NCBI GenBank assembly: GCA_963725665.1
Contig: CAVRZA010000001.1
Span: 96,001-160,000, forward strand
Reading direction: 5' to 3'
From: an uncultured Actinomycetes bacterium
GTDB taxonomy: Bacteria; Actinomycetota; Thermoleophilia; UBA2241
DNA length: 64,000 bases
Of this stretch, positions 24,397-61,090 are shown one piece after another. The notes beneath the pieces are model-generated. The model saw only the letters and a list, made by a program, of their open reading frames with translations, did not search any database and had not been told where the DNA came from. Each line of letters begins with the position of its first letter. Position 1 is the stretch's first letter. A program made the position numbers and the translations under genes.

Positions 24397-24472
24397 GGGC
24401 CGCTAGCTCAGATGGGAGAGCGCCGCCTTTGCACGGCGGAGGTCAGGGGTTCGACTCCCCTGCGGTCCACCA
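24397..24472 (+). tRNA. tRNA-Ala (TGC)
   Basis: Cloverleaf: GGGCCGC/GCGGTCC acceptor stem with G3:U70, CCGCC-TTTGCAC-GGCGG anticodon arm, GTTCGA, encoded CCA; TATACT -10 at 24381. Confidence 0.97.
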
Positions 24473-24602
24473 CCTCGCTTACGCTCGTTTGCAGCGGGGT
24501 ATAGCGAACGCCCCGCGTGTGAACACCGTGGCGGGGTTCAGTGGCAGGATGACGAGGTCGCGGACGCGGGGCGGCGGGAGGTCGTGCTGCCGGCGGGGCG
24601 CG

Positions 24603-25697
24603 CTACGGTCGTCCGACCGTTCTTCGCGTCGTATGCGACGACATGACATCGGCGCCGGATCCCCGAGACTCCGCCGGCCGGACGGCGCACCCGGCGTTCA
24701 GTCCGAGCTCTGCTCCCGGCGCGACGACGATGACGATGTTGCCCAGCTTCTGCTCCGTCTCGGCGTACCGGTGGGCCTCGGCCATCTGGTCGAGGGGGTA
24801 CTGGCGGTCGATGATGGGTCGGAGCTTCCCGGCCTCGACGAGCTCCGTGACGGCGCGCAGGTGCTCGCCCGTGCCGGTGCCCGAGCTGAAGACCATCTTC
24901 TTGTCGCCGGTCAGCGAGGTCCAGAGCCCGCGGATGAACTGGGACGTGTGCGGATTGGCCACCACGTACCGCCCGCGGGGACGCAGCAGGCGGACGACGC
25001 GGCCGAAGGGCGCCCGGCCGACGACGTCGAAGACGATGTCGAAGTTCCCCGCGCCGTCCGTGAAGTCCCGTTCGGTATAGTCGATGACCTGGTCAGCGCC
25101 GATCTCGCGGAGCATCTCGAGCTTGCCGGTGCTGTCGACGGCGACCACCTCGGCGCCGGCATGCTTCGCCAGTTGGACCGCGTAGGTTCCGAAGCTCCCG
25201 CCGGCGCCGATGATGAGGACCCTCTGCCCGGCGCCGATGCCGCCCTTGCGCAAGAAGCGAAACGCCTCCGTCGCGCCGTAGGGGACGGCGGCGGCCTCGG
25301 CGTAGCTCATGGCCGCCGGCATGGGGGCCACGACGCTGCCGGCGCGGCGTCCGCCCACACGGACGTACTCGGCGTACGCCCCGAGTCCGATCCCGGTCGT
25401 GCCGTAGACGCGGTCTCCGGGCGCGAAGGAGGTCGCCCCGTCACCGAGCGACTCCACCTCGCCGGCGAACTCCTGGCCCAGGATGCGGACCCGGGGCCTC
25501 ACGACGCCGAACGCCAGACGGAGGGGGAGCCAGATCCACGCAGGGAACTCGAACCGGCGGATCTCGCAGTCCGCCCTGGAGACCGTCGTGGCGCGGATGC
25601 GGACGAGCACCTCGCCGTCCTTCGGGCGCGGCTTCTCGACCTCCTCGAGCTTGAGGACGTCCGGGCCGCCGTAGGCTGTGCAGACGATCGCCTTCAT
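24603..25697 (-). CDS. NAD(P)-dependent MDR-family alcohol dehydrogenase/oxidoreductase
   Basis: MKAIVCTAYGGPDVL, ILGQEFAGEV, GAGGSFG, ADQVIDY. Confidence 0.9.
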   Translation of the reverse strand: MKAIVCTAYGGPDVLKLEEVEKPRPKDGEVLVRIRATTVSRADCEIRRFEFPAWIWLPLRLAFGVVRPRVRILGQEFAGEVESLGDGATSFAPGDRVYGTTGIGLGAYAEYVRVGGRRAGSVVAPMPAAMSYAEAAAVPYGATEAFRFLRKGGIGAGQRVLIIGAGGSFGTYAVQLAKHAGAEVVAVDSTGKLEMLREIGADQVIDYTERDFTDGAGNFDIVFDVVGRAPFGRVVRLLRPRGRYVVANPHTSQFIRGLWTSLTGDKKMVFSSGTGTGEHLRAVTELVEAGKLRPIIDRQYPLDQMAEAHRYAETEQKLGNIVIVVAPGAELGLNAGCAVRPAESRGSGADVMSSHTTRRTVGRP

Positions 25698-25941
25698 GAA
25701 TACCTCGCAGTCCCTCGCAGTCGCGTGCGCCCTGTCGGGGCCATTCTCTCGCACCTTCTGCCCTGACGCCCCGGAGTCTTGCCGAGGCCGGCGGCACGCG
25801 GGAAGGCGGCGGCTACATGGTGCGGCCTGTTCCTGACCAGGCATTCCCGACGTGAGGAGTTCGAGCAGGACGACAGTCCACGGGCGGAGCGGGGAATGGC
25901 AACTCATCGAGAGGCGATCAGCCGCACGACCTCTTCACGAA

Positions 25942-25985
25942 GGTTCGAGAGTTGTCCCCTTAGGTCCACCAGCCTGCTTACGCTC
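25942..25985 (+). repeat. Decayed tRNA-Ala 3'-end copy (att remnant A)
   Basis: GGTTCGA..TCCCCTTAGGTCCACCA (15/17 to the tRNA end), then GCTTACGCTC as after the intact tRNA. Confidence 0.7.
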
Positions 25986-26345
25986 AGACGCAGGCGTTTC
26001 TCGCTCTCCATCTACCGCACCTGACCCTTGGGAGGCCCTGTTCGCATCCGGTCGGCGAGACCGAAGCGAGGGCGAATCTGATCTTGTCCCCTTCTGGAGC
26101 TTCGTTCCGCCCCGGGGCGGTGACCGCATCGAGCGCTAACCCCTTCGTCTACGTCGCTGACCAATCTCACGTCAAGGAGGAGTTGCAGCCCTACGACTGG
26201 TAGCGCGACCTTGTGGTACGCGGTGCGCGAGAGCATGGGCTGCCCGTAGTCAGACCAGTGGAGACCTCGGCTGCCAATTCCTTGAGCCCAGTGCTTGCAG
26301 GCCGTTTGCTGGACAGGTCTCTTGACCCACTGCACAAAGCTGGCT

Positions 26346-27269
26346 ATGAACGACCCACGGCGAACGAAGGGGGAGGCGGAGACGGCAGCTCGACCCTGGT
26401 GGCGCGGGCCGCGGGACGGGGCATGGCGGTTCACGCAGGCCGCGGCGGCAGGCGGCCTCACCCGCATGGCCGCCGCCCTCACCTACTACCTTGTGCTCGC
26501 CATCTTCCCGGCGCTGCTCATCGTCGCCGGCCTGCTCGGCGCGGTCGGTCTCTCGCCGCAGAGCGTCGCTGCCCTGCTTGACGCCGTCGCCGCGGTGGGC
26601 CCGGACTGGGCCGTGGGCTTCGTGCAGGGCACCCTCTCCAGCGTGCTCTCGGCCCGCGGCACGTCCCTCGCGCTCGGCGCCGGCGTGCTGCTCGCGCTGT
26701 GGACCGCCTCCAGCTACGTGTCGGCCTTCCTCTGGGCGGCGCAGCAGATGGAGGGCCGGCAGCCGCGATCCTTCCTGCGGGAGCTGCCCGTGCGCTTGGG
26801 CCTCGCGCTGCTCCTGCTTCTCCTGCTGGCCGCGTGCGCGGCGGCGATCGTGGTGGCGGGGCCGTTCGCCAAGTGGCTCGGCGATTTGCTGGGCCTAGGC
26901 GACGCCGTGCTCACGGCCTGGTCGTGGCTGAAGTGGCCCTTCCTCTTCGGCGTCGCCTTGCTCGTGCTGCTGCTCCTGTATCGCGCTGCAGCACAACACG
27001 GGACTCGCTGGCGGAGCCAGATCGCGGGCGCGGCCGCCGGCGTGGTCATCGTGCTCGTCGTCTCGGCGGGCTTCAGCGTGTACCTGAGCCATTTCGCCTC
27101 CTACAACAAGGTCTACGGAGCCCTCGCCACCGGCATCGCCTTCCTCGTGTGGGCGTGGCTTGTCAACGCTGCCGTGCTGCTGGGTTTCCTGGCGATGGCC
27201 ACTTGGGAGCAAGGCGCGAGAACGAAGCGGGATGGCGCGTCGAACGCCGAGCAGGAAGCCGACCACTGA
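26346..27269 (+). CDS. YihY/virulence factor BrkB family membrane protein
   Basis: AAALTYYLVLAIFP, ALWTASSY, SYNKVYGALA. Confidence 0.9.
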   Translation: MNDPRRTKGEAETAARPWWRGPRDGAWRFTQAAAAGGLTRMAAALTYYLVLAIFPALLIVAGLLGAVGLSPQSVAALLDAVAAVGPDWAVGFVQGTLSSVLSARGTSLALGAGVLLALWTASSYVSAFLWAAQQMEGRQPRSFLRELPVRLGLALLLLLLLAACAAAIVVAGPFAKWLGDLLGLGDAVLTAWSWLKWPFLFGVALLVLLLLYRAAAQHGTRWRSQIAGAAAGVVIVLVVSAGFSVYLSHFASYNKVYGALATGIAFLVWAWLVNAAVLLGFLAMATWEQGARTKRDGASNAEQEADH

Positions 27270-27896
27270 CGCCACCACAAGGGAGCCGTCTGTGAACATC
27301 CGCAGGTTGCGACACTTCCCGCAACCCGTCTGCAACCAGACTCAGCGGCAGTAGCTAACGCCTTCGCTCACCAGGTAGCCTTCGGACGCGAGGAGGCCTT
27401 CCGTTGCCTTCCCGCGCCTCTCACCCGCGAGACGGCCCAGGGTGCTTCTCGATATCTCAGAGCGCTTCGGAGATACCCTCCGTGGGCTAGAGAAGGCCTG
27501 TCTTGGGCCAGATCATGACCAGCCTCTCGCCGATCGGCTCAAGGGTTTGCGTTTGCAGGCTGTTTGCAGACGGGTGACCGAGCCTACGTCGCGGCCGCAT
27601 TCCCACGCTTGCTGCGGCGCCCCCCAGCTCCCTCTGACCTACGCCCCCCCAAGGCGGCGCCGGTTTCCCAAGCTGGACGGTTGCCGAGCTGGGCGAGATG
27701 GTGAACCAAGCCGGGCACGGTGCTCGTGATATCGTCCTCGTGCCCCAACGGGCTCTCGAAGGGGGAAACCAGTGCTACGACACGCTCTCGTCTGTCTCTT
27801 CTCTGCGCCGGCGTTCGATGCTGCGGCCTACGCCGACGGCGGCAGGACTCGGTCAGCCGGCAGCAGGCCGTGACCCCCGCCACGTAGGCTCAGAGC

Positions 27897-29159: not shown

Positions 29160-30587
29160 CTAGACGGACACGGCAGCCGTGATTACGTCCAGTTCGCGCA
29201 CTTGATCGGCTGAAAGCAGCGGCCCACGCTCGTCGGCGAGTGCAAGAACCTCGCGCACCCGTTCGCACGCCACGTCGTACTCGGTGCGTCCTACCTCCTG
29301 CCATTTCTCGTAGGACAATCGCGAGGCAATCGAGGGGAGGAACTGCTCCCCGGCACGAACGCGGCGCCTGGTTTCCTTCTCGCGCAGGTAGTCGCCGCTG
29401 AAGCCGACCCGCTCGATCATGTCGGCCATGATCGTCTCTGGCGTGATCTCAACCTCGCCCAAGATGCGCTTGATCATCTGGGCTATCTCGTTGTCGATGA
29501 TGATTTGCGGCAGAGACAAGACACCGGCGCCGTTCAGTAGCCCTATCCCTCCTGTCATGAGGTCTGCGCCACTCGACGCGACTACCAAGCCCTTCAACGC
29601 CTTCTCGAAGCCCGCTTGAACTCCCGCGTACTTTGCATCGGTGGCGAGGGCTGGTGCCAGGGCTGGGACCCCCAGGTAGTGCGAGACCTCAACACAGGCC
29701 GCAGATATCTGCCCCGCCTCCAGAGCAGCAAATGCGAAGGTCGTTGTACGCATGTCGAGGACCCCGGCGCAGGCTCCCATCATCAGAGGCGCTCCGGGAC
29801 AGCTCAACTGCACGGCAGTCGCCGCACCGAGGAACTCGGCGATGTTCATGACGACTGCCCCCGCGACGGTGATCGGCGCCGTGCCTCCGGTGGTTGGCAT
29901 CGACAGGATGTTCACCGGGAACCCGTGCACAGCCATCTCGATGCAGGCATCGAGCGCCGGGCCGTGCGCCTGCATCGGCGACGCAGTGGTGGTGATGAAG
30001 CTGACGCGTGGGCGGTGCCGCCGGCTCTCGAGATCGCCGCCGACCACTTCGGTCATCCGAAGGATGGGATCTACCTGTGACAGGTCCTCTATCTGTACCT
30101 GTACATGCTTGCCTGTTGAAGCCAGCGTTGCGGCGATCTCCACCACAATGCGGCCCTGGGGCGGACAGTCGTTGCCCGCCACAATCGGCCAGATGATGTC
30201 GACCGCTGACATCGAGTCGAGGACAGTTGTCGCTTTGCGGAGATCCTCGACCGTCGTCGACCGGTACGCCCCAGTTTCGAAGTCAATGGTCCTACTGGCT
30301 TGACCGGAGTTGAGAAAGTGGATGCTTCCGTCTAGGACACAATCGCGGTCCGGCGTCGCGCCGCCTAAGACATAGCTGTGGGGCATCGTGGCCAGGGCAC
30401 ACTCAACGAGGCGTCGGGGAATCCGGGCAGTCCCTGTTTCACGATCGACAGCTGCGCCGGCGTTCGCCAGCGTCTCCAGCGCCCTTCCCGGCCCGAACCG
30501 CATCCCCATGTGCTCAAGCAGGCTGACCGCCTCTTCGTAGACTAGTGCTCGCTCCTCTTTCGTCGTCCACCCGACGCGTGCTCTCAC
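29160..30587 (-). CDS. MttB-superfamily (trimethylamine methyltransferase family) corrinoid methyltransferase, non-pyrrolysine
   Basis: GGTAPITVAGAVV..IAEFL, PGAP, TDAK..G.QAGFEK, IDNEI; Ala at the Pyl-equivalent position. Confidence 0.92.
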   Translation of the reverse strand: MRARVGWTTKEERALVYEEAVSLLEHMGMRFGPGRALETLANAGAAVDRETGTARIPRRLVECALATMPHSYVLGGATPDRDCVLDGSIHFLNSGQASRTIDFETGAYRSTTVEDLRKATTVLDSMSAVDIIWPIVAGNDCPPQGRIVVEIAATLASTGKHVQVQIEDLSQVDPILRMTEVVGGDLESRRHRPRVSFITTTASPMQAHGPALDACIEMAVHGFPVNILSMPTTGGTAPITVAGAVVMNIAEFLGAATAVQLSCPGAPLMMGACAGVLDMRTTTFAFAALEAGQISAACVEVSHYLGVPALAPALATDAKYAGVQAGFEKALKGLVVASSGADLMTGGIGLLNGAGVLSLPQIIIDNEIAQMIKRILGEVEITPETIMADMIERVGFSGDYLREKETRRRVRAGEQFLPSIASRLSYEKWQEVGRTEYDVACERVREVLALADERGPLLSADQVRELDVITAAVSV

Positions 30588-32599: not shown

Positions 32600-34369
32600 C
32601 TAACAGATGACAGGCAGAGTGATGCACGACGCCCTTGTTGCGTCGTGGCAGACGGTCTGTCGCGCCGGCCGGAGCTGGGCGTCCATTCCGAAGTCGTGCC
32701 CGGTGTTGGGGTTGCGATCGTAGCGGTCGAAGTTGCTGCTCGAGATCTCCAACCGCAGGCGGTGTCCGGCCTTGAAGAGATAGCCCGTCGCCGTGAGGTC
32801 TACCGCGAACTCGTAGATGCGGCCGGGATCGATCAGCGTCGGTGAGGTGTCCGATTCGCGGAAACGCGCCCGTCTGATGCCCTCCTGGACGAGCTGCGAG
32901 TAGCCATCGGGCCAGACGTCGACCAGGGCGGCGGTGAAGTCCGTGTCGGGGGCGCTCGAGGACGCCCACAGGGTCACCGACAGCGGCCCCACCACCTCGA
33001 GATCTGAGGAGAGGGGTGGTGAGGTGTAGACGAGGACATCTGGTCGATCTTCGACGGGGCGGCGGTCTTGCATGTGGCGCGCGACCTCCCACGGATTCTT
33101 GCCGGCCCAGTAGTCGACTGGCCTGGCGGGGTCGTAGACGAAACCATCCGCCGGCTCGTCGCCGGGCGGTTCCGGCGAGAGCTCTCCGTCACCACGAAGG
33201 CTCATCGCGTTGCCGGCGCTGTGGAGGTAGTACTGGACGAACACGGTGCCCGGCAGGGGGAATACGTCGCCTTCGCGCCACCGGTTGGCTCCCACGACGA
33301 AGAGGCGCACGCGCTTCGTGTCGGCGAAGCCGGTCTCCGCCCCGCGCAGCCAGTGGTCGAAGAACTCCTGTACGCGGTCGTAGGTGAATCCATGCCCCTC
33401 TACCTTGATCCTGCCAATGCGGCCGGTACGGTCTGGTGTCGTCTCGTGGTCGTTGGGGCTGATGACGAGCCACTGGTTGGCGCGGGCCTCTTCGTTTCGG
33501 CAGCGTTGCTGAACGTCCCGCCATCCCCAGAGCACGCCGCGCAGCAGGACGTCGTACCAGCCACTCCAGTGCAGAACGGGGATATCGAGCGTCTCGCTCG
33601 CGTCCGTCAAGTCGAGGGCATCCCAGAATCCTCCTCTGGTGGGGTTGCGAATCGCGTCGGCGAACAGCTTGCCCGGCAACCCGGCAGCTTCGGCCAGCGA
33701 GACCAGCGGGAGATGCGATGTGTCAATGCGGTACTTGTTCGAGGTGCGGCGACCGGCTTCTTCGGCGAACCACACTCCCTCGGATGAGAGACAGAAGGCA
33801 CCGCCCTCGTAGACGTTGTCGTACTCGTCCAAGGCTATGTCGCCGGGAGCGATGCACGTCAGCCCAGGGTGGTGAGATCTCGCTGCAGCCCACGAAGTAT
33901 GGCCGTAGTATGACTCCCCTGTCACGCCGATCTTGCCGTCACACCAAGGCTGGTGCGTGATCCACTCAATGGTGTCGTAGCCATCGTCCGTCTCGCGGCG
34001 GAAGGCCTCGAACTCGCCTTCCGAAAGGAACTTGCCACGTACATCTTGGACAATGCACACGTAGCCCTTGCGTGCCCAGAACCTGCCGTGCGCGGGCATT
34101 CTGCAGTACGGCTCACCCTTTCCGTACGGCAGACGGACGACCACGACCGGTAGGGCCGCGGGACGGTTTTCCGCCTCGGGCTGATAGATGTCGGCGAACA
34201 GCCTCACGCCGTCCCGCATCGGAACCGCGACGTTCTTGGAGACGCTCACGCGAGAGTAGACATCCGGGGTCTCGGTCGGCAACTCGTCGAACGGCAAGGC
34301 GATGTGCTTCCTGAGGCCGGTGCGCCCCCGCGCCATCAGCCACTTGAGGTCAGCTCTCACGTGGCTCAT
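32600..34369 (-). CDS. CocE/NonD-family hydrolase
   Basis: VPMRDGVRL, QDVRG, GESYYG nucleophile, GWYD, GHRLRLEISSSNF. Confidence 0.93.
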   Translation of the reverse strand: MSHVRADLKWLMARGRTGLRKHIALPFDELPTETPDVYSRVSVSKNVAVPMRDGVRLFADIYQPEAENRPAALPVVVVRLPYGKGEPYCRMPAHGRFWARKGYVCIVQDVRGKFLSEGEFEAFRRETDDGYDTIEWITHQPWCDGKIGVTGESYYGHTSWAAARSHHPGLTCIAPGDIALDEYDNVYEGGAFCLSSEGVWFAEEAGRRTSNKYRIDTSHLPLVSLAEAAGLPGKLFADAIRNPTRGGFWDALDLTDASETLDIPVLHWSGWYDVLLRGVLWGWRDVQQRCRNEEARANQWLVISPNDHETTPDRTGRIGRIKVEGHGFTYDRVQEFFDHWLRGAETGFADTKRVRLFVVGANRWREGDVFPLPGTVFVQYYLHSAGNAMSLRGDGELSPEPPGDEPADGFVYDPARPVDYWAGKNPWEVARHMQDRRPVEDRPDVLVYTSPPLSSDLEVVGPLSVTLWASSSAPDTDFTAALVDVWPDGYSQLVQEGIRRARFRESDTSPTLIDPGRIYEFAVDLTATGYLFKAGHRLRLEISSSNFDRYDRNPNTGHDFGMDAQLRPARQTVCHDATRASCITLPVIC

Positions 34370-35358: not shown

Positions 35359-35461
35359 GCTTCCTTGCACTGATGTCCCCCTCGGACGTCGACCGACGCA
35401 CGACGTCCAGCGCCGGAGGTAGGGCCACGTGGCGCTCGGCCCCCGTTCGACCCTCGACACT

Positions 35462-45203: not shown

Positions 45204-45216
45204 CCAGGGGGTGGAG

Positions 45217-50264: not shown

Positions 50265-51278
50265 TCAGTCTGCGCGGACGGTGGCGTGGGTACGCTCGCT
50301 GCGGAAGTGGCAGGCGGCTAGATGCGCCTGGGTGTGGTAGGCAGCCGGCGACGTCTCCGTCCCGGAGCCGTCCACCGGCAGAAGCCGCGGCTCATCCACG
50401 GCGCACACCGCCTCCGCCCGCGGGCAGCGCGTGTGAAAACGGCATCCGGAGGGGACGTCGATCGCGCTCGGCGGGTCGCCCTTGAGCGGCGCCTCCGGCG
50501 TACGTCCGACTTGACTGAGGCGTGGCGCCGACTTGAGCAGCACCTGGGTGTACGGCGCCCGCGGATCGCCGAAGAGAGCGTCCCTCGGCGCCGCTTCGGC
50601 GATCCGCCCCAGGTACATCACCGTCACTCTGTCGGAGAGATGGCGCACCACCGCCAGGTTGTGCGAGATGAGCAGGATGGCGAGGCCCAGCCGCTCGCGC
50701 AGCTCGGCGAACAGAGCCAGGATCGTAGCCTGCACCGAGACGTCCAGAGCGGACACCGGCTCATCGGCGACCAGCATGCGCGGCTCCACGGCCAGCGCCC
50801 GTGCGATGGCGATACGCTGACGCTGCCCCCCCGAAAACTGGTGCGGGTAGCCGTCCAAGGCCCGAGGCGGCAGACCGACGTATGCCAACAGCTCCCGGCA
50901 GCGTCCCTCGACCTGATCGCGCGGCACAAGGTGGTGTACGCGCAGCAGCTCCGTCAGCACCTGACGGACGGGCAGGCGAGGGTTCAAGGAGGTGGCGGGG
51001 TCTTGGTACACCATCTGGATCGAACGGCGCACCGCGGCCCGACGCTGCCGGCCGACAACGTTGCCGTCGAGCACGACCTCACCCTGTGTCGCCGCGAGCT
51101 CACCCGTGATGCAGCGCCCGATCGTGGTCTTGCCGCAGCCGGATTCGCCGACCAGGCCGACGATCTCGGCCGGCGCCAGGCGGAGGGAAACGCCGTCGAC
51201 GGCGCGGACCACGCCGTAACCCTTGACCGGGAAATGGACGTGAAGGTCGCGGACCTCGATCAGGGGCTCAGGGGACAC
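50265..51278 (-). CDS. Oligopeptide ABC ATPase (DppF-like)
   Basis: GESGCGKT, FSGGQRQR, GCRFHTRC. Confidence 0.94.
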   Translation of the reverse strand: MSPEPLIEVRDLHVHFPVKGYGVVRAVDGVSLRLAPAEIVGLVGESGCGKTTIGRCITGELAATQGEVVLDGNVVGRQRRAAVRRSIQMVYQDPATSLNPRLPVRQVLTELLRVHHLVPRDQVEGRCRELLAYVGLPPRALDGYPHQFSGGQRQRIAIARALAVEPRMLVADEPVSALDVSVQATILALFAELRERLGLAILLISHNLAVVRHLSDRVTVMYLGRIAEAAPRDALFGDPRAPYTQVLLKSAPRLSQVGRTPEAPLKGDPPSAIDVPSGCRFHTRCPRAEAVCAVDEPRLLPVDGSGTETSPAAYHTQAHLAACHFRSERTHATVRAD

Positions 51279-52266
51279 CTGCCTCCAGTCCCTCCTTCAT
51301 GAGCTCGTCCACATACAGACAGGCGCTGGCTCGACCCGGCCCCGCCGGAGCCAGCGCCACGTCGCTGGTCTCGCACGGCGACCGCGCCAGGAAGCAACGC
51401 GGGTGGAACGCGCACCCCGTGGGCCGGTTCAGCGGATCGGGCAGGCTGCCGGGGATGGGGACGGGCGCGCTCACCTCGATGTCGAGATCCACCGCCGAGC
51501 GCAGCAACCCGATGGTGTACGGGTGCAGCGGCCGCGCGAGCAGGTCGGCCGCGCGGCCCGTCTCCACCAGGCGGCCGGCGTACATCACACAGACGTCTTC
51601 GCAGAGCTCGCCGACGAGCGCCAGCTCGTGCGTGACGAACACGATGGACAGGCCCATGCTCTCCTGAAGGTCGACGAGCAGGCGCAGGATCTGCGCCTGG
51701 ATGGTCACGTCGAGAGCGGTCGTCGGCTCGTCGCAGAGCAGCACCTTGGGCTCCGACGAGAGCGCGATGGCGATCATCACCCGCTGGCGGGTGCCGCCGG
51801 AGAGCTCGTGCGGGTAGCTGCGCATGCGGCGCTCGGCGTCGGGGATGCCGACCAGACGGAGCAGCTCGAGAGCCCTCGCATCGGCCTGGGCGCGCGACAT
51901 CCCCAGCACGCGCCGAGGCGCCTCGGCGATCTGGTAACCGCACGTCATCACCGGATCGAGCGACGTGCCGGGGTCCTGGAAGATCATCCCCAGCCGGCCG
52001 CGACGGGCGGCGGGCACGCCCTTGCCGCGGAGCGGCAACTCCACGCCCGCCGCCGTCACGCGGCCGGCCGTGGCGGCGGCGCGATCCGGCAGCAGCCCCA
52101 TGGTCGCGCGCAAGGTCAGGCTCTTGCCACACCCGGATTCGCCGACAAGCCCGACGGATTTGCCGCGCTCGACCGCGAGCGAGACGCCGTCGACGGCGCG
52201 GAACCGCTCCCGGTCGCGGGTGACCTCGACCACCAGCCCGTCGACCTGCAGTGCCGGATCGCTCAT
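51268..52266 (-). CDS. Oligopeptide ABC ATPase (DppD-like)
   Basis: [38 protein letters not shown]. Confidence 0.94.
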
Positions 52267-53159
52267 TCGGGACGCAGCACGTCGGCCAATCCGTCGCCGA
52301 GCAGGGAGAGGCCGATGCCGGTGATGACGACGCACAGACCGGGGATGGTCGACAGCCACCACCGCGTGGTCATGAACGGCTGGCCGTCGAAGATCATCGA
52401 TCCCCAGTCGGGGTTCGGCGCCTGGATGCCCAGGCCCAGGTACCCCAGGGTGACCACGGCGAGGATGACGAAGACGATGTCCGATGTCGCGTAGACGATG
52501 GCCTGGGTGATCGTGTTGGGCAGGATGTGCCGGCTGAGGATGCGAGGATCCGACAGGCCCCCTCCCTTGGCCGCCGATGACCAGCCAAGGCGGCCGACGA
52601 CGAGTGTGGAGCTGCGCACCGTGCGCGCGTAGGTCACCCAATCGGTCAGCGCGAAGGCGATGAAGATGCCGCGGATGCCTTTGCCTACCACGAACACCAG
52701 GGTGATGATGAGTACGTAGTAGGGGAAGGCCATGACCACGTCGATGATGCGGCTGAGCACCGTGTCGGGCCAGCCCTTGTAGTAGCCGGCCAGCGTACCT
52801 ATGGTCGTCCCGATAGTGAACGGGATGAGCACCACCAGGAAGCCCGTGGCGAGGTCGAAACGGCCTGCCCACAGCAGGCGCGACCAGACATCCCGCCCGA
52901 GCTGGTCAGTCCCCAGCCAGTGGGCCCACGAAGGGGATGCCAGGATGTCGGTGAGATTCTGCTGCAGCGGCGGGTAGCGGTCGATCCACGGTGCGAGAGC
53001 GGCGAGAAGGATGAGGACGCCGAGGATGGTCGCGCCGGCGATGAGCGAGCGGTTGCGCGCCGCTTTGCGCAACAGAGGGTGCGAGCGGACGACGAGACCC
53101 TCAAGCGCGACGGCCTGGTCGCCACCGGCGCTCGGGCTACTCACGGGACTAGCGCTCAC
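52263..53159 (-). CDS. ABC permease (DppC-like)
   Basis: HWLGTDQLGRD, HILPN, PDWG. Confidence 0.93.
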   Translation of the reverse strand: MSASPVSSPSAGGDQAVALEGLVVRSHPLLRKAARNRSLIAGATILGVLILLAALAPWIDRYPPLQQNLTDILASPSWAHWLGTDQLGRDVWSRLLWAGRFDLATGFLVVLIPFTIGTTIGTLAGYYKGWPDTVLSRIIDVVMAFPYYVLIITLVFVVGKGIRGIFIAFALTDWVTYARTVRSSTLVVGRLGWSSAAKGGGLSDPRILSRHILPNTITQAIVYATSDIVFVILAVVTLGYLGLGIQAPNPDWGSMIFDGQPFMTTRWWLSTIPGLCVVITGIGLSLLGDGLADVLRPE

Positions 53160-54085
53160 GACAGCCGGATTCGCGGGTCGAGTCTCGCCGCCGTGAGATC
53201 GGTGACGAGATTGATGATGACCACCGACAGCGCGAGGACGAAGGTCACGCCCTGCACGACGGGGAAGTCACGGTTGCTGATCGAGGTGAGCATCAGGGTC
53301 CCGAGACCGTTGAGCTGGAACACCCTTTCGACGATCACCGTCGCGCCGATGAGGAAGGCCACATTGATCCCCAAGAGGGTGAGCGTCGGAATGATGGCGT
53401 TGCGCGCGACGTGGACGAGCAGCACGCGGTGCTCACGCAGTCCCTTTGCCCGCACGGTGGCGATGTAGTCGGCCTGGAGGACCTCGAGCATGCCGACGCG
53501 CAGGCTGCGCACCAGGAGCGGCACGATCGCCAGGGCCGACGTGAGGGCCGGCAGGATGAGCGCCTGGATGTGCTCGGGGACCGTGTCGCCCCAACCGCCC
53601 ACCGGGAACCAGCCCAGGTTCACGGCGAAGATCAGGATCAGGACCAGACCGACCCAGAACGACGGCATGCCGAGCCCGACTATGGGGACGGCGCGGATGA
53701 TGTGGTCTTCGGGTCGGTCTTTGCGGATGGCCGCGATGGTCGCCAGGGGTACGGTGATCAGGACGGCGAAGAGCGTGGCGAGGGCGACCAGCGCCATCGT
53801 CACGCCTATGCGGCTGGCGATGAGCGTGCGGGTGGGCACTTCATAGAAGAGTGAGGCGCCGGTGTCGCCGTGTGCCAGCTGCTTGAGGAAGAGCCAGAAC
53901 TGGATCCAGATCGGCTCGTCCAGCCCCCAGCGCGCGCGCAGTGCGGCGATCTGTTCCGGCGTGCCGCGGTTGCCGAGCAACGTCATCGCCGGATCGCCCG
54001 GTATCAGGCGCAGCAGGAAGAAGGTGACGATGGTGATGCCGAGGACCACCGGGATGGCCTGAGCCAGGCGGCGGACGATGTACAT
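53156..54085 (-). CDS. ABC permease (DppB-like)
   Basis: IPGDPA, YIATVRAKGL, RDFPVVQ, LDPRIR. Confidence 0.93.
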   Translation of the reverse strand: MYIVRRLAQAIPVVLGITIVTFFLLRLIPGDPAMTLLGNRGTPEQIAALRARWGLDEPIWIQFWLFLKQLAHGDTGASLFYEVPTRTLIASRIGVTMALVALATLFAVLITVPLATIAAIRKDRPEDHIIRAVPIVGLGMPSFWVGLVLILIFAVNLGWFPVGGWGDTVPEHIQALILPALTSALAIVPLLVRSLRVGMLEVLQADYIATVRAKGLREHRVLLVHVARNAIIPTLTLLGINVAFLIGATVIVERVFQLNGLGTLMLTSISNRDFPVVQGVTFVLALSVVIINLVTDLTAARLDPRIRLS

Positions 54086-54123
54086 CCGCCGCCCTCAGGC
54101 CATCCCGGTGTCAGTGGAACGCG

Positions 54124-55746
54124 TCACGCCAGCCAGACACTCTCCAGCATGTAGGCGCCAGCCGGGTTGACCGCGAAGCCGTTCACCGCGTTGCCCCAGG
54201 CGTAGATCGACGGCGGATAGGTCAGCGCCACATACGGTGCGTCCTGCGCCACCATGGCCTGGATCTGCTTGTACATCTCGCCGCGTTTCGCAGAGTCCAT
54301 CTCCCCCGCCGCCTCGCGCACCAGCTTCACGACGTCGGGGTTGTTGTAGCCGGTCCAGAACGAGTCAGAGCCGCCGTTCTCCGCATCGCACTGGAACGAG
54401 GCCATCTCGTCGGGGTCACTGATGTCGTTGATGGCGTTGTTGATCATCTGGTCGTAGTTGAACTTGCGGAAGTCGTCCTCGTAGGCCGCGTGGTCCTTCT
54501 GGTCGATGGTCGCGTTGATGCCGATCTTCTTCATGCCGTCCTGCAGGATCTGCGCCGTCTGCGCCCACACCTGGTTGCCCGTCGGGATGAGGATCTTGGT
54601 GTCAAAGCCGTTGGGATACCCGGACTTGGCGAGCTCTGCCTTGGCGGCCTCGATGTCGTAGGAGAGCAGCGGTGTGTTGGCATCGTAGTACTGCAGGCTG
54701 GGCGGGAAGAAGGATCCCCCTGCCGGTGCAGTGTTGAAGGTGGTCGCCGAGGCGATCGCCTTGGTATCGATGGTGTAGGCGATGGCGCGACGGACGTTGC
54801 GGTCGGCGTAGTACTTGACCTTCTCGTTGAAGAACACAAGGTCGACCGACCACGCCGGAAAGATGCCTACCGCGACCTTGCTGTCACCCTTCAGGGACTG
54901 CACCTGCGCCGGCGGCACGAGGTCGATGACCTGCACCCCCCCGCTCTGCACCTGCAACACGCGCTGGTTGTCGTCGAGGATGACGCGGAACACGACCTCG
55001 TCGAGGTACGGCTTGCCCGCCTGCCAGTAGTTGGTGTTGCGTTCAAGCGTGATCTCGGCTCCCTGCTGCGCCCAGGACTTGAGCTTGAACGGTCCCGTGG
55101 CGACGGGATTGGCGAAGAACTCCTTCTCCGAGAGGCCGTTGAGATCCTTGGGCAGGATCGCGTCAGAGTAGATCGAGAGGTCGGAGAGCAGCGGTGCCCA
55201 AGGCTGCGAGAGCAGGATCTTGACCGTGGACTGGTCGACCGACGTCACATCCTTGATGGCGAAGTTGAGGAAGCTCATCGACCCCGTCTTGCTCGTCCGC
55301 GCGCGGTTCAGCGACCACGCCACGTCGTCGGCCGTCATGGGCTTCCCGTCGCTGAAGGTGACATCCGGCTTGAGGGCGAGCGTGTAGGTCATGCCGTCCG
55401 CGCTGACCTCATGAGAGTCGACCAACCACGGCTGCAACACCCCCTTGGCGTCTGTGACGTACAGCGTCTCGTAGATCTTGTCGAGCGTGTACACGTTGCC
55501 GCTGCTGACCGCGACGTTGTGGGGATCCAGACCGACGGCCTGGACGGTGGGCTGGACGGCGCGACCGATGATCAGCTGGCCACCCGTCTTGGGCGAGCCG
55601 CTGGCGCTGGGGCTGGCCGACGACGATGTGGATGTGCCCCCGCAGGCCGCGGCCAGTCGCCCGAGAGCCAGCAGTCCGACCCCCGCGGCTCCGACCTTGA
55701 GTACGTCCCTGCGCGTGTACTCTTCCTTACTCCAAGACATGACCAT
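54124..55746 (-). CDS. Family 5 ABC substrate-binding Tat lipoprotein
   Basis: TRRDVLK Tat motif, AAAC lipobox, FSDGKPMTADDV, TGPF. Confidence 0.92.
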   Translation of the reverse strand: MVMSWSKEEYTRRDVLKVGAAGVGLLALGRLAAACGGTSTSSSASPSASGSPKTGGQLIIGRAVQPTVQAVGLDPHNVAVSSGNVYTLDKIYETLYVTDAKGVLQPWLVDSHEVSADGMTYTLALKPDVTFSDGKPMTADDVAWSLNRARTSKTGSMSFLNFAIKDVTSVDQSTVKILLSQPWAPLLSDLSIYSDAILPKDLNGLSEKEFFANPVATGPFKLKSWAQQGAEITLERNTNYWQAGKPYLDEVVFRVILDDNQRVLQVQSGGVQVIDLVPPAQVQSLKGDSKVAVGIFPAWSVDLVFFNEKVKYYADRNVRRAIAYTIDTKAIASATTFNTAPAGGSFFPPSLQYYDANTPLLSYDIEAAKAELAKSGYPNGFDTKILIPTGNQVWAQTAQILQDGMKKIGINATIDQKDHAAYEDDFRKFNYDQMINNAINDISDPDEMASFQCDAENGGSDSFWTGYNNPDVVKLVREAAGEMDSAKRGEMYKQIQAMVAQDAPYVALTYPPSIYAWGNAVNGFAVNPAGAYMLESVWLA

Positions 55747-55894
55747 CCCCTAGCGTCGCTTGTGACTCCCCAATTAAGAACTCATCGAGCACGGTCCGCT
55801 CACCGGTCTCGCCACGAGGTCTACCATCCGCGCGTGGCAAGGTCAATGGGCTTGCCCCCACCCCGTCTGTCGGCCGCACGCTATCCCTAATGCA

Positions 55895-56021
55895 TCAATG
55901 AGTCAGCATTGAGAGCGCAAAATAGACAGATTGGTATCTTACTAATGGCTTGTGCGAACGTGCAAGGGCCATACAATGGTGTCATTAGGCATTGACGGAG
56001 ATTTCACAGAACCTTTAGATT
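55895..56021. promoter_or_regulatory. AT-rich divergent control region with a candidate operator and promoters
   Basis: TCAATG-N6-CATTGA (55895-55912); TTGTGC-N16-TACAAT; TTGACG-N18-TAGATT. Confidence 0.5.
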
Positions 56022-56061
56022 ATGAACGGATCGACCCAACAGAATCGGGAACGGAGGACTT

Positions 56062-56856
56062 GTGATCCGAGACGCTGAGTCGTCTGTCAGCAGCGTTTCA
56101 AACGGCGGCGATTCATCATCGCGCCGTGCCTATGAGGTTCTGAGGAGAGCGTTCGTACTGTGCGAGGTCATGCCGGGGAGCCAAGTGACGGAGTCATTTC
56201 TGGCGGAGCGATATGGTCTGACTCGTGCGGCGGTGCGTGCGGCCCTCGGGAGACTGCGCCAACAGCACTGGATCGAAGCGAGCCCTAGAAAGGGTTATGT
56301 CGTTCGCCCGCTGACGCTCAAGGACATCCGGGATCTGTACGCAGTCCGTTCACTCTTAGAACCGGCGGCTGCGGAGATGGCGGCGCGCAATGCCAGTGAG
56401 TCCCAATTGGCCGAGATTGGAGAGCTGGCACGTGTGAACGCCGATGACGGTGCTGGCTATGAGGCCATCAGAGACTTCCTGGAGGTGAACACTCGATTCC
56501 ACGTGGCGGTTGCGACCGCTTCTGGGAACGAACGGATTGCGCAGATGCTCGAAGAAGTGCTCGTCGAGATGGAGAGGATGTTCCATTTCGGTCTGGCGTC
56601 CGCGAGTCGAAGCTTCGAGATGTCGCATGAGCACGGCAAGCTCGTAGATGCTCTCATGGCGGGGGATTCAGCTGCAGCCAGCGCAGCCGTGCGGGAGCAG
56701 CTAAGGACGTCGGAGAAGATGGTTGTCGACGTGGTGTTGTTGCAGAATCCCATGCTACAAAACGTGAACCTTGCGCAGGAGGCCCACATGAAGGGCTACG
56801 CCCCTGCTCGCATCGACACGGAGTACAGCCGCGAAACGGACAAGGATCGGCTGTGA
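56062..56856 (+). CDS. GntR-family regulator (FCD domain)
   Basis: PGSQVTESFLAERYGLTRAAVRAAL, LYAVRSLLE, NTRFH..A.ASGN, EH. Confidence 0.92.
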   Translation: MIRDAESSVSSVSNGGDSSSRRAYEVLRRAFVLCEVMPGSQVTESFLAERYGLTRAAVRAALGRLRQQHWIEASPRKGYVVRPLTLKDIRDLYAVRSLLEPAAAEMAARNASESQLAEIGELARVNADDGAGYEAIRDFLEVNTRFHVAVATASGNERIAQMLEEVLVEMERMFHFGLASASRSFEMSHEHGKLVDALMAGDSAAASAAVREQLRTSEKMVVDVVLLQNPMLQNVNLAQEAHMKGYAPARIDTEYSRETDKDRL

Positions 56857-57123
56857 CCCGGAATCGCTTCCACCCAGTCCGGCGGCCCTGGAGCGCTCAT
56901 GTGAGACAGTGCCACGGGGTCCGACCTACGAATGAGGGCATCGATCGGAGCTACACAGGCATGACCGCTTGACCCAATACGCTCGTCCCGACCATCGGTA
57001 TTCAGGTCGGGCACGGCTCTCCTCATGCTGCGGGGCCGCCGCCCAATGCGCAGCCGGAAGGGAGCTGGGGATAGGAGGCGAGCAGCAGCGAGCGAGTACT
57101 CTGCGAGACCGTCAGACCTGAAG

Positions 57124-58569
57124 GTGCATGATCGGCGCCCGGCGTACGAGGAGTTCCTCGACCGCTTTCCCGAGTATGCGGAGACGGCCAAGCTCGACGA
57201 ACTACGCATCACCGAATACGAACGCTTGGACCGCCTGGGTCACGTCTACCTCGACTACACGGGCGGAGGGCTGTTCGCGCAACGGCAGCTCCGCGAGCAT
57301 TGCCAGCTCCTCGGAGCGCATGTGCTCGGCAACCCGCATTCGCATAACCCAGCGTCGCGTGCCGCCACGGAGCTCGTCGAGGAGGCGCGCGAGGACGTTC
57401 ACCGCTTCTTCAACGCCGACCCGCGCGAGTACGAAGTCATCTTCGTATCCAATGCCAGCGGAGCACTGAAGCTTGTGGGCGAGGCGTACCCGTTCGACCG
57501 GCAGGCTGGCCTGCTACTGACCTTCGATAACCACAACTCAGTCAACGGCATGCGTGAGTTCGCCCACACGAGGGGTGCTACCACCACATACGTCCCAGTG
57601 TGCAACCCCGACTTGCGTGTCGACGGAGAGCTTCTGCAGCAGGCGCTGCGCGAGTCGCGGTCGCCCGATCCCACATCCCCTCCAACAGGGGGCCTTTTCG
57701 CCTACCCAGCGCAGTCGAACTTCAGCGGGGTGCAACACCCCCTGTCCTGGGTGAGGGACGCGCGCGCACACGGCTGGGACGTGATCCTCGACTGCGCTGC
57801 ATACGTGCCCACGAATCGCCTCGACATGCGGCGTGTGGGAGCCGACTTCGTGCCAATCTCGTTCTACAAGATGTTCGGCTACCCGACGGGTATCGGCGCC
57901 TTGATAGCCCGGCGCAAAGCGCTGTCCCGGCTGCGGCGACCGTGGTTCGCTGGCGGCACCATCACGATCGCCTCTGTGCAGAACGAGGATTGGCACCGTC
58001 TGGCGCCGGCACCTGCTGGCTTCGAGGACGGCACCCTCGATTACCTTGGCTTGCCAGCGGTGAGCATGGGGCTGCGCTACCTGGAGTCGATCGGGATGGA
58101 TACTATCCACACGCGGGTCTCGTGTCTGACCGCTTGGCTGATCGACGAGTTGTTGCGGCTGCGGCACAGCAACGGGCATCCGCTGGTACGCATCTTCGGT
58201 CCGCGGGACATGGAGGGGCGCGGCGCCACGATCGCTCTGCACCTGCTCGATCCCCGTGGCCGTCCGTACGACGTTTACGACATCGAGACAGCCGCAGGAC
58301 GCGAGCTCATCTCCATCCGCACCGGGTGCTTCTGTAACCCGGGTGACGGGGAGGTCGCCCATGAGATCACGAGTGGTGATATGGAGCCCTGCTTCCGCGA
58401 CAGCACGGCGATTGTCTCCCTGACCCAATGTCAACGGTCAATCGAGGACGCCACCGGCAAGGTGCCAAACACTATTCGTATATCGCTCGGCCTGGTCTCG
58501 AACTTCGAAGACGTCTGCCGCTTCGTGGCATTCACGGGGCGTTATCGCGACAGGCTTGAGGGTCGATGA
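57124..58569 (+). CDS. Class V PLP enzyme, molybdenum cofactor sulfurase NifS-like domain (start uncertain, ORF open from 57025)
   Basis: YLDYTG, GNPHS, DNHNSVNG, AQSNFSG, ISFYKMFGYPTG.GAL, FEDGT, RTGCFCNPG. Confidence 0.88.
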   Translation: MHDRRPAYEEFLDRFPEYAETAKLDELRITEYERLDRLGHVYLDYTGGGLFAQRQLREHCQLLGAHVLGNPHSHNPASRAATELVEEAREDVHRFFNADPREYEVIFVSNASGALKLVGEAYPFDRQAGLLLTFDNHNSVNGMREFAHTRGATTTYVPVCNPDLRVDGELLQQALRESRSPDPTSPPTGGLFAYPAQSNFSGVQHPLSWVRDARAHGWDVILDCAAYVPTNRLDMRRVGADFVPISFYKMFGYPTGIGALIARRKALSRLRRPWFAGGTITIASVQNEDWHRLAPAPAGFEDGTLDYLGLPAVSMGLRYLESIGMDTIHTRVSCLTAWLIDELLRLRHSNGHPLVRIFGPRDMEGRGATIALHLLDPRGRPYDVYDIETAAGRELISIRTGCFCNPGDGEVAHEITSGDMEPCFRDSTAIVSLTQCQRSIEDATGKVPNTIRISLGLVSNFEDVCRFVAFTGRYRDRLEGR

Positions 58570-58581
58570 GACCTCTCCGCG

Positions 58582-58751
58582 CGTCGGAGCCCAAGGTGGT
58601 GCTCTGCGAGAGCCGAGACCGCTCTCGACGTGACGATCCAGGCTCAGATTCAGCGCCTGCTCGTCGACCTTCAGGAGGAGGTGGGTCTGTTTCCATCGTG
58701 TTCGTCACGCACGAACTGACGTTCGTCGGCGAGCTTCTGCGAAGACGTCTG
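58582..58751 (+). pseudogene. Degenerate inverted copy of part of the DppD-like ATPase gene (51590-51758)
   Basis: [27 protein letters not shown] and [13 protein letters not shown] readable across frameshifts. Confidence 0.85.
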
Positions 58752-58784
58752 AGCGGCATCCACTCGGAAAGCAGGTGTAGGCAG

Positions 58785-59954
58785 ATGGTACGCTCAATTG
58801 AGTTCATCATGACGGCAGGACCCGTCGAGTTGTCTGACAGGGTCCGCTCCGCTCTCGGTAGCCAGCTCCTGTTCGACTACTCGCAGCCGTTTCTCGATCT
58901 CTTCCGAGACACCGAGCAGAAGTTCAAGCAGTTCCTTAAGACCGGCAACGACATCGTCATGATGCAGGGAGAAGCGCTGCTCGGGCTTGAGGCGATATCT
59001 CTCTGCGGTCTCGACGAGGGCGATGTCGTCATCAACGTCGAGAGCGGCCACTACGGCGAGGGCAACCGCTACTTCATAGAGAAGTACGGCGGCAAGGTAG
59101 TCCCGGTCGAGACGCCGTGGAACACGGTCGCGGAGCCCGAGCAGCTCGAGGCTGTGCTCAAAGCTCACCCGGAGGCGAAGATCCTCTGGCTCGTCCACTG
59201 TGAGACGCCCTGCGGGACGCAAGCCGACCTGGAGTCTCTGGCCAAGCTGGGCAAGCAGTACGGCAAGCTGGTGTTCGTCGACTCGGTGAGCTGTGCCGGT
59301 AGCTCCCCTGTGGAGGTCGATGCCTGGGGCATCGATATTGTCTCGGTGGGGTCTCAGAAGGTACTGGGGGCGCCCCCCGGCCTGAGCGCAATGTCTATCT
59401 CGGAGGCCGCCTGGGACGTCTTCCGCGGCGTCAAGCAGCCGAATCGCTATTCGTACTTCAGCATCCTTGACTGGAAGGAGCTCTGGCTCGAGAAAGGGAT
59501 ATGGCCCTACACCGCGTCGACCACGGAAGTGGCGGCGCTGAACGCAGCGGTGAGCGAGTACCTCGAAGTCGGGCACGAGGAGCATTTCCGCAGGTACGCG
59601 GAGATTGGCCGTGCCGCTCGGGCTGGGGTCGAGGCGATGGGCCTGAAGCTGTGGCCTGATAATGCACAGCACGCCTGCAACGTCGCCACTGCGATCTCTG
59701 TGCCCGACGGTATCGACGACGAGCATCTGCGGCGGCGCATGATTGAGAAGTTCGGCGTATTGATCTCCGGCAGCCTCTTCAACACGCCTATCTACGGCAA
59801 GTTGGTGCGCTTGGGCCACATGGGCAGAACGTGCAGTCCCGCATATGGCAGCGTCGCGCTCACCGCGCTCGGCCACTGCCTCAACGAGATGGGCTGTCGC
59901 GTGGACGTAGGCGCCGGAATCGACGCCTTCCTCGCTCAACTCGATCCGGTGTGA
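58785..59954 (+). CDS. Class V aminotransferase, pyridoxamine-pyruvate transaminase-like
   Basis: TAGPV, LLFDY, QGEALLGLEA, HCETPCG, GSQKVLGAPPGL, SILDW, GKLVRLGHMG; resembles the M. loti PPAT sequence as recalled. Confidence 0.8.
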   Translation: MVRSIEFIMTAGPVELSDRVRSALGSQLLFDYSQPFLDLFRDTEQKFKQFLKTGNDIVMMQGEALLGLEAISLCGLDEGDVVINVESGHYGEGNRYFIEKYGGKVVPVETPWNTVAEPEQLEAVLKAHPEAKILWLVHCETPCGTQADLESLAKLGKQYGKLVFVDSVSCAGSSPVEVDAWGIDIVSVGSQKVLGAPPGLSAMSISEAAWDVFRGVKQPNRYSYFSILDWKELWLEKGIWPYTASTTEVAALNAAVSEYLEVGHEEHFRRYAEIGRAARAGVEAMGLKLWPDNAQHACNVATAISVPDGIDDEHLRRRMIEKFGVLISGSLFNTPIYGKLVRLGHMGRTCSPAYGSVALTALGHCLNEMGCRVDVGAGIDAFLAQLDPV

Positions 59955-60247
59955 GGCTAGGCGTCTACCGAGACCGCCGCGAACGAAATGCATCGAGTTC
60001 GAAGAATGGAGGGAGAATCTCGGGCACGTCCGGAGTGTGACAGTAGCCGTGCCGTCGGGCACGATCGACGTGCTGCGGAGTATCTCCTCGCTCGTGCGCC
60101 AAGCCGTTCACTCGGGCTAACGTCCGGCTAACGAACTGCTCGATTCAACCTGACTCTCGCTGGCACTCAGTGTCAGACCACGCCTGCTCTTCACGCTCGT
60201 GGGCGCACTCAGTGGCACTCACCGGCACGCACTAGCACGATACTCGA

Positions 60248-60296
60248 CGCCTTTGCACGGCGGAGGCCAGGGATTCGACTCCCCTGCGGTACACCA
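60248..60296 (+). repeat. tRNA-Ala 3'-part copy (att site C)
   Basis: 46/49 identical to 24424-24472. Confidence 0.93.
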
Positions 60297-60407
60297 CTCA
60301 TTTGCAGGGAACTCGTGCTCCGTACGGCGCAAAGAACCGTCCTGGACACCCCCTCCTACAACCCGATGACAAACAGACTGAGTGCGGCTCGGTGCGCCTC
60401 GGTGGGT

Positions 60408-60447
60408 ACGGCGGAGGTCAGACGTTCGATTGTCCTGCCGTCGATCC
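60408..60447 (+). repeat. Decayed tRNA-Ala 3'-part copy (att remnant D)
   Basis: 31/40 gap-free match to the tRNA end, with the first 14 nt exact. Confidence 0.75.
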
Positions 60448-61089: not shown

Positions 61090-61090
61090 C

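Follow-up and report, generated by a model that had tools for sequence, protein, structure and literature searches.

A probable integration hot spot behind a tRNA-Ala gene in an uncultured Thermoleophilia bacterium, with integrase-less island units bounded by a widespread attP-like arm

Displaced tRNA-Ala cores and the arms beside them

We analyzed a stretch of 64,000 nucleotides (the window) from an uncultured actinobacterium of the class Thermoleophilia, in which an intact tRNA-Ala(TGC) gene is followed by displaced copies of its own 3' part that lie between blocks of metabolic genes. The window corresponds to C1:96001-160000 of the source genome (G000, 3.73 Mb in 12 contigs) and belongs to a contig of 576 kb; coordinates without a contig label are those of the window. 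We read the region as a probable hot spot for integration at tRNA-Ala(TGC), comprising at least four island units without an integrase. The intact gene (24397-24472, plus strand) is the sole tRNA called by ARAGORN in the window, and a 32-nt probe of its 3' part finds three matches at three mismatches or fewer, against an expectation of 0 from 100 shuffles.

The core query was a 71-nt block, made of 49 nt of the tRNA and 22 nt of the flank behind it, which was aligned locally along the window. It scores 142 at the tRNA itself, 132 at copy B, 85 at copy C, 40 at copy D and 38 at copy A; the best other place scores 26 and the best place in the reversed sequence 24. An earlier note, made from the letters of this DNA, had counted at least four copies in the orientation of the tRNA, and this count holds, with copies A to D at 38-132 over a background of 26 or less and all four on the plus strand. 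Copy B (48493-48563) is identical to the tRNA 3' part and flank at 69 of 71 positions, and its first 54 nt are identical throughout, as that note had also reported (54/54). Copy C (60248-60297) matches at 47 of 50 positions. Copy D (60408-60442, 29/35) is decayed and follows copy C at a distance of 111 nt. Copy A (25955-25985, 28/30 with two 1-nt gaps) is a decayed 3' end of core and flank, recognisable to 25993. Duplication extends from the anticodon stem to beyond the 3' end of the tRNA. A displaced segment of a tRNA 3' part in direct orientation is described as the classical mark of islands integrated at tRNA genes (PMC4383910), and here such fragments occur together with the intact tRNA.

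A homologous arm of about 135 nt (the P arm) precedes both copy B and copy C, and the two stretches are 79% identical over 147 nt including the core. The P arm of junction B (48357-48491, plus strand) is found by cmsearch with 98.9 bits (E 9e-30), and that of junction C (60111-60246, plus strand) with 92 bits (E 1e-27). The arm contains four to five spaced GCACTC repeats, an ACGCTC block and, at the far end, a GGCAAACGAAC motif; it aligns over its full length in 8-10 copies from 4-5 genomes, in which these motifs are conserved. About 70 nt downstream of the core the first 45-70 nt of the arm recur as a P' arm, which at junction B is a repeat of the first ~45 nt (48610-48653, plus strand, cmsearch E 0.028, model positions 3-46). 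The spacing from P arm through core to P' arm is regular, about 252 nt, and it is the same in relatives. Judged by their sequence, the unit junctions appear to have an attP-like layout of P arm, core and P' arm. As single-stranded DNA the arms fold no better than shuffled sequences (z -1.45, -1.16, +0.09 and -0.51), and a hairpin structure like that of attC sites was rejected.

Two further places carry parts of the arm. An arm-start motif, CAAACAGACTGAG, lies between copies C and D (60353-60404, plus strand) with a weak match (cmsearch E 1.4); it could belong to C as its P' arm or to D as a truncated arm, and occupies what had been taken for an empty unit. Relic E (27317-27408, plus strand) is a decayed arm covering model positions 4-109 (cmsearch E 5.4e-5, nhmmer E 0.067), followed by an inverted arm-start motif at 27544-27572 (cmsearch E 0.23). 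The earlier note had placed a possible fifth copy of the tRNA at 27378. No core is detectable there: local alignment scores in 27300-27600 reach no more than 18, a background value, and the candidate was rejected; the place is best read as a decayed junction relic.

No mobility gene accompanies these junctions. When the 30 open reading frames (ORFs) at 24603-63998 were compared with Pfam, no recombinase, transposase, relaxase or phage family was found and four ORFs had no match; an ABC ATPase (41577-43388) gives only P-loop cross-hits to TniB and AAA_21. The tyrosine recombinase family PF00589 has 18 matches genome-wide and 0 in the window. The earlier statement that the region lacks an intact integrase, transposase, relaxase or phage gene holds. 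The serine recombinase family PF00239 has no match in the whole genome, although 12 of 14 control genomes were positive, and a serine recombinase was therefore rejected. Upstream of tRNA-Ala there are genes for a glyoxalase-family protein, a methyladenine glycosylase and an acyltransferase, and no integrase. Thus none of the 30 ORFs supplies the integrase that is expected inside a tRNA island, and the region has the lack of integration and transfer genes that characterises cis-mobilizable elements (CIMEs).

Genes between the junctions

The gene next to the tRNA belongs to the Zn-dependent alcohol dehydrogenase/quinone oxidoreductase family (ADH; 24603-25640, minus strand, ORF open to 25907; Pfam ADH_N and ADH_zinc_N). 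It is 87-94% identical at the nucleotide level in all of the 15 closest loci from species-representative genomes, and in nine of these it is oppositely oriented and lies 0.03-3.5 kb 3' of a displaced core or a tRNA-Ala(TGC) gene; three of the nine have an arm upstream of the core. One locus (L095) is collinear with the window, with tRNA, 22-nt flank, hairpin and ADH in this order. Because of this identity and adjacency, the ADH gene is, as far as comparison of sequences tells, a conserved chromosomal neighbor of tRNA-Ala and not captured cargo, contrary to its earlier description as a cargo unit. Recent transfer of the gene, considered in view of its 94.8% nucleotide identity to G003 against 77% in the flank, was rejected on the grounds of the same 87-94% identity in all 15 loci. 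Directly behind the tRNA (24473-24515, plus strand) there is the 22-nt flank of the repeated block (to 24494), which is repeated at A and B, and then a hairpin; the arm model has no match in this interval. Since the tRNA is without a P' arm and the conserved ADH gene comes next, the place immediately behind the tRNA appears to be free, and the array seems to start beyond ADH at relic A, which itself has no arm upstream. Core relics like A beyond the ADH start occur in three of 16 genomes (G000, L096 and L110).

Between A and E lies a single gene for a YihY/BrkB family membrane protein (26295-27269, plus strand, PF03631, E 5e-49). The next unit (unit 3, from E to B, 21 kb) has its cargo at 27897-48227 on both strands, as annotated with Pfam and NCBIfam. 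It encodes four MttB-superfamily methyltransferases (29160-30587 on the minus strand; 35616-37037, 45211-46668 and 46773-48227 on the plus strand), which have no in-frame stops and score 311-345 bits against a trimethylamine equivalog cut-off of 525. There are also a cognate corrinoid protein that passes TIGR02370 (37049-37738), Opp-type permeases with a fused ATPase (39689-43388; Pfam, NCBIfam) and, by Pfam, an S15 peptidase (32600-34369, minus), a DUF4268 protein (34456-35475, minus) and an FAD oxidoreductase (43623-45203), together with two SBP_bac_5 binding proteins and a 387-aa ORF without a family. The corrinoid gene (37075-37736) is 98% identical to a second copy at C6:221087-221748; one of the copies is a recent intragenomic duplicate, or the two are a shared recent acquisition.

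Unit 4 (from B to C, 11.7 kb; cargo at 48703-59954 on both strands, Pfam and NCBIfam) begins with an amidohydrolase (48703-50034, minus) and an Opp-type ABC operon (50265-55746, minus; Pfam, NCBIfam), followed by a GntR/FCD regulator (56062-56856) and two class-V aminotransferases (57025-58569 and 58566-59954), all three with Pfam matches. An inverted repeat of 170 nt, 90% identical, connects 51590-51758 with 58582-58751, and the second aminotransferase ORF bears an ABC ATPase fragment antisense at its 5' end. In G069 and G101 this segment matches their ATPase gene only; the repeat is a scar of a rearrangement within unit 4.

The units of G000 contain from one to about 15 genes each; unit 3 has about 15 and unit 4 about nine, on both strands, and unit 4 brings its own regulator. 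GC content is 0.655 in unit 3 and 0.649 in unit 4, against 0.695 in the left flank, and both are GC mosaics within. As units they are present in none of the 88 relatives searched; this absence and the lower GC mark units 3 and 4, and not ADH, as foreign content. A module like that of unit 4 is found at 84-85% identity in G069:C6 and G101:C12, with no arms or cores around it in 40 kb each, and the matches to unit 3 are generic ABC, MttB and corrinoid genes at 66-85%, so that the presence of either as an arm-bounded unit elsewhere was rejected. Unit 4 is bounded by attachment sites on both sides, as a CIME is, with core B and its P' arm on the left and the P arm and core of C on the right. Unit 3 has the P arm and core of B on the right and only the relics A and E on the left.

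Outside these units, a 67-aa XRE-type HTH gene (60886-61089) and two small membrane-protein ORFs lie to the right of D within 60418-61716, with 82% nucleotide identity to G009:C1 and a paralogue on C2. A divergent 143-aa ORF (60418-60849, minus) has an HEAGH motif and no Pfam match, and may be the remnant of a metalloprotease/repressor pair. In-frame-looking direct repeats in coding regions at 86-516 (three of 68 nt) and 16267-16857 (four of 33 nt, spaced 123-273 nt) probably encode repeat-domain proteins.

The arm family in the same genome and in its relatives

The earlier note had proposed a search with the flank of copy B beyond the window; the arm family is present at a second tRNA gene and in many relatives. 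A second integrase-free array is located about 18 kb upstream of the window, at tRNA-Glu(CTC) (C1:38205-77634). Displaced copies of the tRNA-Glu 3' part lie at C1:60776-60823 (48/48), 47951-47998 and 38205-38233; two of the three cores are preceded by the same arm (C1:38254-38389 and 60825-60960), and a P' piece is found behind the tRNA-Glu(CTC) gene itself. The cargo comprises MMPL proteins, a beta-lactamase-fold protein, an arginase, a class-I Glu/Gln tRNA synthetase and a two-component system, and a tRNA-Gln gene lies inside the array.

The model of the arm detects the family in 42 of the 89 genomes of the organism's family; none of the genomes compared is of the same genus. Arm counts per genome are lower bounds, at least 36 in G024 and at least 35 in G085, as no more than 36 candidates were scored in any genome. 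The hits cluster behind tRNA-Ala or tRNA-Glu genes. An array in G085 (C8:1074-1230 kb) starts at tRNA-Glu and has 36 arm hits, counted in 175 kb of G085:C8, and one in G024 (C4:640-777 kb, 137 kb) has 30; the two arrays mix tRNA-Glu with tRNA-Ala cores on either strand, and many units of these two genomes measure only 1-6 kb. In every array and genome examined the copies run from the anticodon stem/loop to just past the 3' end. The left flank of the window is syntenic with G003 and G024, whereas downstream of the tRNA each genome examined has different DNA; in G003, the 60 kb around its tRNA-Ala contain no additional core.

The G085 and G024 arrays allow a view of how such loci change. Upstream of tRNA-Glu the two genomes are 98.6% identical over 2.2 kb, yet their arrays share only 18 segments of at least 400 nt (87-99% identical), in scrambled order (Spearman -0.44, p 0.07) and with nine in plus and nine in minus orientation. 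These arrays appear to turn over fast, as far as the thin basis of one short flank for the closeness of the two genomes allows.

Integrases are sparse in the arrays. G085:C8 contains four integrase loci among its 36 arm hits; the G024:C4 array has no PF00589 match, and neither do the tRNA-Ala arrays at G024:C5 (70-125 kb, three displaced cores) and G074:C17 (4-95 kb, five) at E<=1e-5. One integrase (G024:C5:156274-157428), with Arm-DNA-bind_4 and SAM_3 domains besides the catalytic one, belongs to a 10-kb unit of the tRNA-Glu array. Its segment of 2-2.7 kb recurs in three copies, 84-87% identical, in the G085 array, where two of the three are in arm-bounded units of 4.4 and 7.5 kb. Units with an integrase and the same arm, which could act as the autonomous partners of CIMEs, are thus present in G024 and G085, whereas the source genome offers only homologues of 38-47% identity.

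There are three such best homologues in G000, of which two are broken. The gene at C2:582099-583166 (38% identical) is intact and belongs to an island behind tRNA-Phe. That at C1:513252-514298 (41%) has two in-frame TAG codons. The third, C6:270259-270996 (47%), represents the C-terminal portion of a gene interrupted by a single frameshift, which does not fall in a homopolymer, and 57 nt past its stop there is a 27-nt tRNA-Ala-like fragment of T-arm and acceptor. Its closest relative is an intact integrase on G008:C6, to which it is 77% (residues 154-411) and 70% (residues 1-166) identical in two reading frames; many other members of this family are fragments or pseudogenes. Because that relative stands behind an arm and a truncated tRNA-Ala core, it seems that an integrase lineage associated with tRNA-Ala has been in G000 and that its copy is now broken. 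The G008:C6 integrase was rejected as the cognate enzyme, since its core is truncated and its relatives in G000 are pseudogenes or sit in other islands. By homology, then, G000 appears to contain no intact close relative of the array integrase and no cognate enzyme, and the search for one that the earlier note had suggested came out negative.

Several observations on other islands of the same genome stand apart from the two arrays. A tRNA-Pyl gene (anticodon CUA, ARAGORN) lies at C6:343702-343774 (minus) in this MttB-rich genome, and 1.2 kb away, at C6:342470-342501, 32 nt of its 3' part are repeated, as would be expected if an island had entered at this tRNA. In the integrase gene on C1, which extends over C1:513252-514463 (minus), is otherwise full length and is 67% identical to an intact G008 gene over 401 residues, both in-frame stops and also the terminal stop are TAG; two TAG of two are not significant alone, and in view of the CUA tRNA the gene, if not a pseudogene, is a candidate for read-through. 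In a tRNA-Arg(CCT) array (C1:468624-552014), three displaced 3' copies are accompanied by more than 20 short fragments that match only the last 30-60 residues of the same integrase family, and by several frameshifted copies; elements seem to have integrated here repeatedly, beside or inside integrase 3' ends. Orphan 3' copies of tRNA-Ala (44/44) and tRNA-Cys far from tRNA genes are found at C6:244285-244328 and elsewhere (C6:242032-242075, 249193-249219 and 282548-282596; C2:584190-584240), in a mosaic of mobile-element remains that includes a deleted integrase and an IS110 transposase. A copy of tRNA-Phe at C3:35244 points to a join between the end of C2 and the start of C3.

Origin of the array and its relation to known systems

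We consider it probable that the region is a tandem accretion array of non-autonomous, CIME-like islands which was built by tyrosine integrases and is now without its cognate enzyme. The incoming elements would have been circular, and in their attP the ~135-nt P arm would have been joined to a core that matches the tRNA exactly from the anticodon stem to some 22 nt beyond its 3' end, followed by a P' arm in which the beginning of the P arm recurs. Such an element would be recombined with the tRNA, or with a core displaced earlier, by a tyrosine integrase that is presumably bound to the arms, and each event would leave a junction of P arm, core and P' arm between neighboring units. The present units carry cargo only, unit 3 a methylated-amine module and unit 4 a module of peptide/amino-acid transport and aminotransferases; they are therefore non-autonomous and could move only if an incoming element supplied the enzyme. 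As no intact close relative of the array integrase is present in G000, the array is probably inert at present.

Several observations weigh against this account. The tRNA is without a P' arm and has ADH next to it, whereas under the simple model the array should adjoin the tRNA, and strict insertion at the tRNA does not fit the order in which the copies have decayed, with A decayed and B near perfect. The published accretion model, as presented in PMC5704250, includes integration into a displaced core instead of the tRNA; by analogy, such events would explain the irregular order. No unit of the window retains an integrase pseudogene or any other trace of a mobility gene (0 of 30 ORFs), and neither does the tRNA-Glu array (37 ORFs, 35 families) among the 25 of its 35 families that were listed. 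The integrase-free G024:C5 and G074:C17 arrays fit units that never owned an integrase as well as they fit decay, and the binding of integrase to the arms is something we infer. Finally, neither the short, non-bridging contigs of sequencing runs nor metagenome contigs scanned for the pattern of tRNA and B flank (0 matches) revealed an excised form, an empty site or another arrangement. Each of the 20 runs located contains at most 0.19 of the sampled words; the four that were placed on the junctions gave only short contigs, none bridging, which have no bearing on excision either way, and the loose ends at 48498 in these runs are tRNA genes of other organisms. The exact copy B had been taken to favor continued mobility; it fits a recent event and does not show mobility.

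Simple decay should leave wreckage, and since none is seen in either array a bolder reading is kept alive, although we hold it to be doubtful: that the integrase-less units are themselves the primary mobile entities and are shuffled in trans by a few tyrosine integrases, as on an integron-like platform. Such a platform may be lineage-wide in uncultured Thermoleophilia, with junctions of ~250 nt and capture behind tRNA-Ala(TGC) and tRNA-Glu(CTC). It would be a double-strand analogue of the integron built on a tRNA core, with at least 30 junctions over ~160 kb, and the array of the window would be an outpost whose enzyme has been lost. The conservation of the arm across genera and with two different tRNA cores speaks for it, as do the small units and reshuffled segments of G085 and G024 and the rule, among the arrays examined, that an array is integrase-free (both arrays of G000, G024:C5, G074:C17 and G024:C4; G085:C8 with its four loci in 36 hits). 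It is countered by the lack of an integrase beside the arrays and of a close homologue in G000, by arms that form no hairpins, by G000 units of one to ~15 genes on both strands with mosaic GC, and by the finding that units 3 and 4 are arm-bounded in none of the 88 relatives; the lack of circles and empty sites also counts here, in run data that are uninformative on this point. The earlier note had left the choice between cassettes moved in trans in an integron-like manner and islands that had lost their integrases. Its general picture survives in the integrase-free array, the crossover mark of a tyrosine integrase, the shared arms and the relatives' units with an integrase, while the integron-like part of it suffers from the missing cognate integrase, the absence of an integrase beside the array, the lack of hairpins and the multigenic units.

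We regard as improbable that the repeats arose without site-specific integration, by segmental duplication or by homologous or illegitimate recombination, with the arms as an unrelated dispersed repeat. The lack of a P' arm at the tRNA and the irregular decay order speak for it, and isolated arm pieces of ~67 nt without cores in relatives and the orphan tRNA-Ala and tRNA-Cys copies on other contigs point the same way. Against these stand the constant limits of the copies in all arrays examined, the clustering of arms behind tRNA-Ala and tRNA-Glu where a dispersed repeat would be scattered, the constant spacing of P arm, core and P' arm, and the integrases with arm-binding domains in some units. 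Even less credible is an error of assembly or binning, in which the contig would be chimeric at short repeats and the array would not be one molecule. The assembly does consist of 12 contigs with an estimated contamination of 5%, and no run was found with reads that bridge the junctions; an artefact is nevertheless unlikely because the repeats are 35-71 nt long within a 576-kb contig, analogous arrays exist in many independently assembled relatives, and the left flank of the window is syntenic with G003 and G024. Accretion of non-autonomous islands by tyrosine integrases remains the account that we favor.

Tandem accretion of this type has been described for CIMEs of streptococci together with integrative and conjugative elements (ICEs) as well as integrative and mobilizable elements (IMEs) (Pavlovic 2004 and Bellanger 2011, as cited in PMC5704250). 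According to that source, the att sites of CIMEs derive from the 3' end of the target gene, integration and transfer genes are absent, several units stand in tandem at one site, and a newcomer may enter a resident unit's att site; all this resembles the present array. In contrast to the streptococcal elements as presented there, no functional ICE or IME partner is present in G000, one arm family serves two tRNA targets, the arrays of relatives reach at least 30 junctions, and mobilisation here is putative. The islands at ssrA of Dehalococcoides (McMurdie et al. 2011, PMC3146451) are similar in that they lie in tandem downstream of a stable-RNA gene, with direct repeats of its 3' end, conserved sequence adjacent to the repeats and metabolic cargo. 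In that report an integration module is present in 16 of 31 islands and missing from the other 15, which, as its authors propose, may be CIMEs. The module described there, next to attL, encodes a CcrB-like serine recombinase (DsiB), and the ssrA repeat is 20 bp, whereas here the tRNA repeat is 45-71 nt, the relatives have tyrosine integrases and G000 has no PF00239 match. The tRNA islands of Islander likewise have ends marked by an intact tRNA and a displaced direct 3' fragment, and differ from the window array in being defined with an integrase inside (PMC4383910).

Integrons are arrays of cargo split by a conserved recombination site, in which the cargo carries no recombinase, intI lies beside attI and the attC sites fold into hairpins; their cassettes are mostly single, promoterless ORFs in one orientation. 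The array shares with them the cargo units without a recombinase and the conserved site between units. It has no intI beside an attI and no PF00589 match in the window, no folded hairpins like those of attC (z -1.45 to +0.09) and a crossover site that is a tRNA core, and its units are multigenic (~15 and ~9 genes) on both strands, with a regulator of its own in unit 4. The label of integron fails on three defining features, the intI beside attI, the folded hairpins and the single-gene units. The array is of a known kind, in which non-autonomous islands accrete in tandem at a stable-RNA gene, but belongs to a new lineage, and a full-text literature search found no paper on such arrays in Thermoleophilia. 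What is new here is a conserved and widespread att arm that bounds arrays at two tRNAs.

The array shows an uncultured actinobacterial lineage gaining and reshuffling metabolic modules at two tRNA genes. The ~135-nt arm is a practical marker, as a single model finds unit boundaries in 42 of 89 genomes, and this opens the way to mapping gene flux unit by unit. Should the units prove to be mobilised in trans, integrons would have in this system a counterpart of large scale based on tRNA; otherwise it would be a well-preserved case of tandem accretion followed by integrase loss.

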